Assembly (NCBI RefSeq): GCF_000172995.2
Contig: NC_014731.1
Span: 60,001-92,000, forward strand
From: Halogeometricum borinquense DSM 11551
GTDB lineage: Archaea; Halobacteriota; Halobacteria; Halobacteriales; Haloferacaceae
Direction: 5' to 3'
DNA length: 32,000 nt
Continued below: a report on this DNA, generated by a model with database tools. The DNA itself is not shown here.

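Follow-up and report, generated by a model that had tools for sequence, protein, structure and literature searches.

An intact Orc1/Cdc6 paralogue (window 9205-10485) was found between the PIG-L deacetylase gene and Gfo2, one of the Gfo/Idh/MocA oxidoreductase genes. This slot was identical in all eight full clusters compared (the window and loci L003, L087, L090, L092, L095, L096, and L097), which are plasmid-borne as well as chromosomal. An inverted repeat with an ORB-like/G-string element lies 5' of orc1 (window 9086-9140) and is almost invariant across the eight clusters; no such element was detected in the 1.52 Mb of other fetched loci. This element could be an origin, dormant or active, that travels with the island. 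It could instead be an autoregulatory site, or it could serve as the operator for a regulator derived from Orc1.

Closely 5' of orc1, the window also has a perfect 11-nt inverted repeat, with arms TCAGTACCCCC (8973-8983) and GGGGGTACTGA (9134-9144), that encloses about 150 nt of reduced GC. The GC content of the entire 235-bp intergenic stretch upstream of orc1 is 49%, compared to about 60% in the flanking genes. The left arm of this repeat showed no obvious conservation in other genera.

The full clusters differ in other genes. The Haloprofundus clusters and that of Haladaptatus pallidirubidus (L090, L092, L096, and L097) keep a NUDIX hydrolase carrying a Nudix_N domain between the TIM-barrel gene TIM2 and RidA; the H. 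borinquense window and Halocatena lack it. On the Haladaptatus halobius plasmid (L095), Gfo4 and Gfo3 are separated by an inserted transposase, Gfo1 is replaced by an additional Gfo pair, and no PLP or RidA gene was seen within the 23-kb stretch examined. This cluster is undergoing remodelling.

The DgaE-like clade without the phosphate site extends beyond these clusters. Among the bacterial and Nitrososphaerales loci (L020-L082), it is common in Alphaproteobacteria, Chloroflexota, Planctomycetota, and Acidobacteriota and is also present in some Nitrososphaerales. In Hyphomicrobiales it is accompanied by a ROK regulator together with a CUT2 sugar ABC system and an SDR. In Thermomicrobiales its neighbours are a gene resembling M20 deacetylases and one of the creatininase family. 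On a Haloarcula marina plasmid (L083), the PLP homologue adjoins an AGE gene, with a PL8 polysaccharide lyase and a sulfatase nearby. In Natrialbaceae archaeon A-chndr2 (L084), it adjoins a TIM barrel and a flavin reductase, and a Gfo protein, a luciferase-like monooxygenase, and a sulfatase lie in the wider vicinity. The neighbourhoods at these last two loci hint that the same lyase is also used in glycosaminoglycan (GalNAc) catabolism.

In the window, a GATase1_like gene (PF07090, 6421-7161) and a threonine-dehydrogenase-like Zn-ADH gene (7161-8180) are translationally coupled. Halorubrum, Haloarchaeobius, and Haladaptatus (L005, L013, and L085) also have GATase1_like copies that adjoin PIG-L or PLP genes, and the nearest structure is Salmonella STM1381, a protein without an assigned function. 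This family may play a part in amino-sugar metabolism that has yet to be described.

The right flank looks like neutral-sugar rather than amino-sugar metabolism, since the AGE-family protein (17306-18508) scored higher as a D-mannose isomerase than as a GlcNAc 2-epimerase and the signal-less GH3 (23753-25972) resembles BglX/xylosidase rather than NagZ. Two further gene groups were seen there:

18522-19940: HMG-CoA-synthase-like protein
19937-21139: thiolase
26129-30422: three neighbouring genes with TrkA_C (RCK_C) domains; one encodes an AsnC-type HTH regulator, another a TrkA_N/TrkA_C protein, and the third a CitMHS transporter in which the TrkA_C domain is internal

The HMG-CoA-synthase-like gene shares 4 bp with the end of the thiolase gene upstream of it and encodes one 472-aa polypeptide whose C-terminus carries the DUF35-type domains zf-ChsH2 and OB. 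In the archaeal thiolase/HMGCS/DUF35 complex, these components are separate subunits. The TrkA_C trio looks like a unit that combines ligand-gated transport with regulation.
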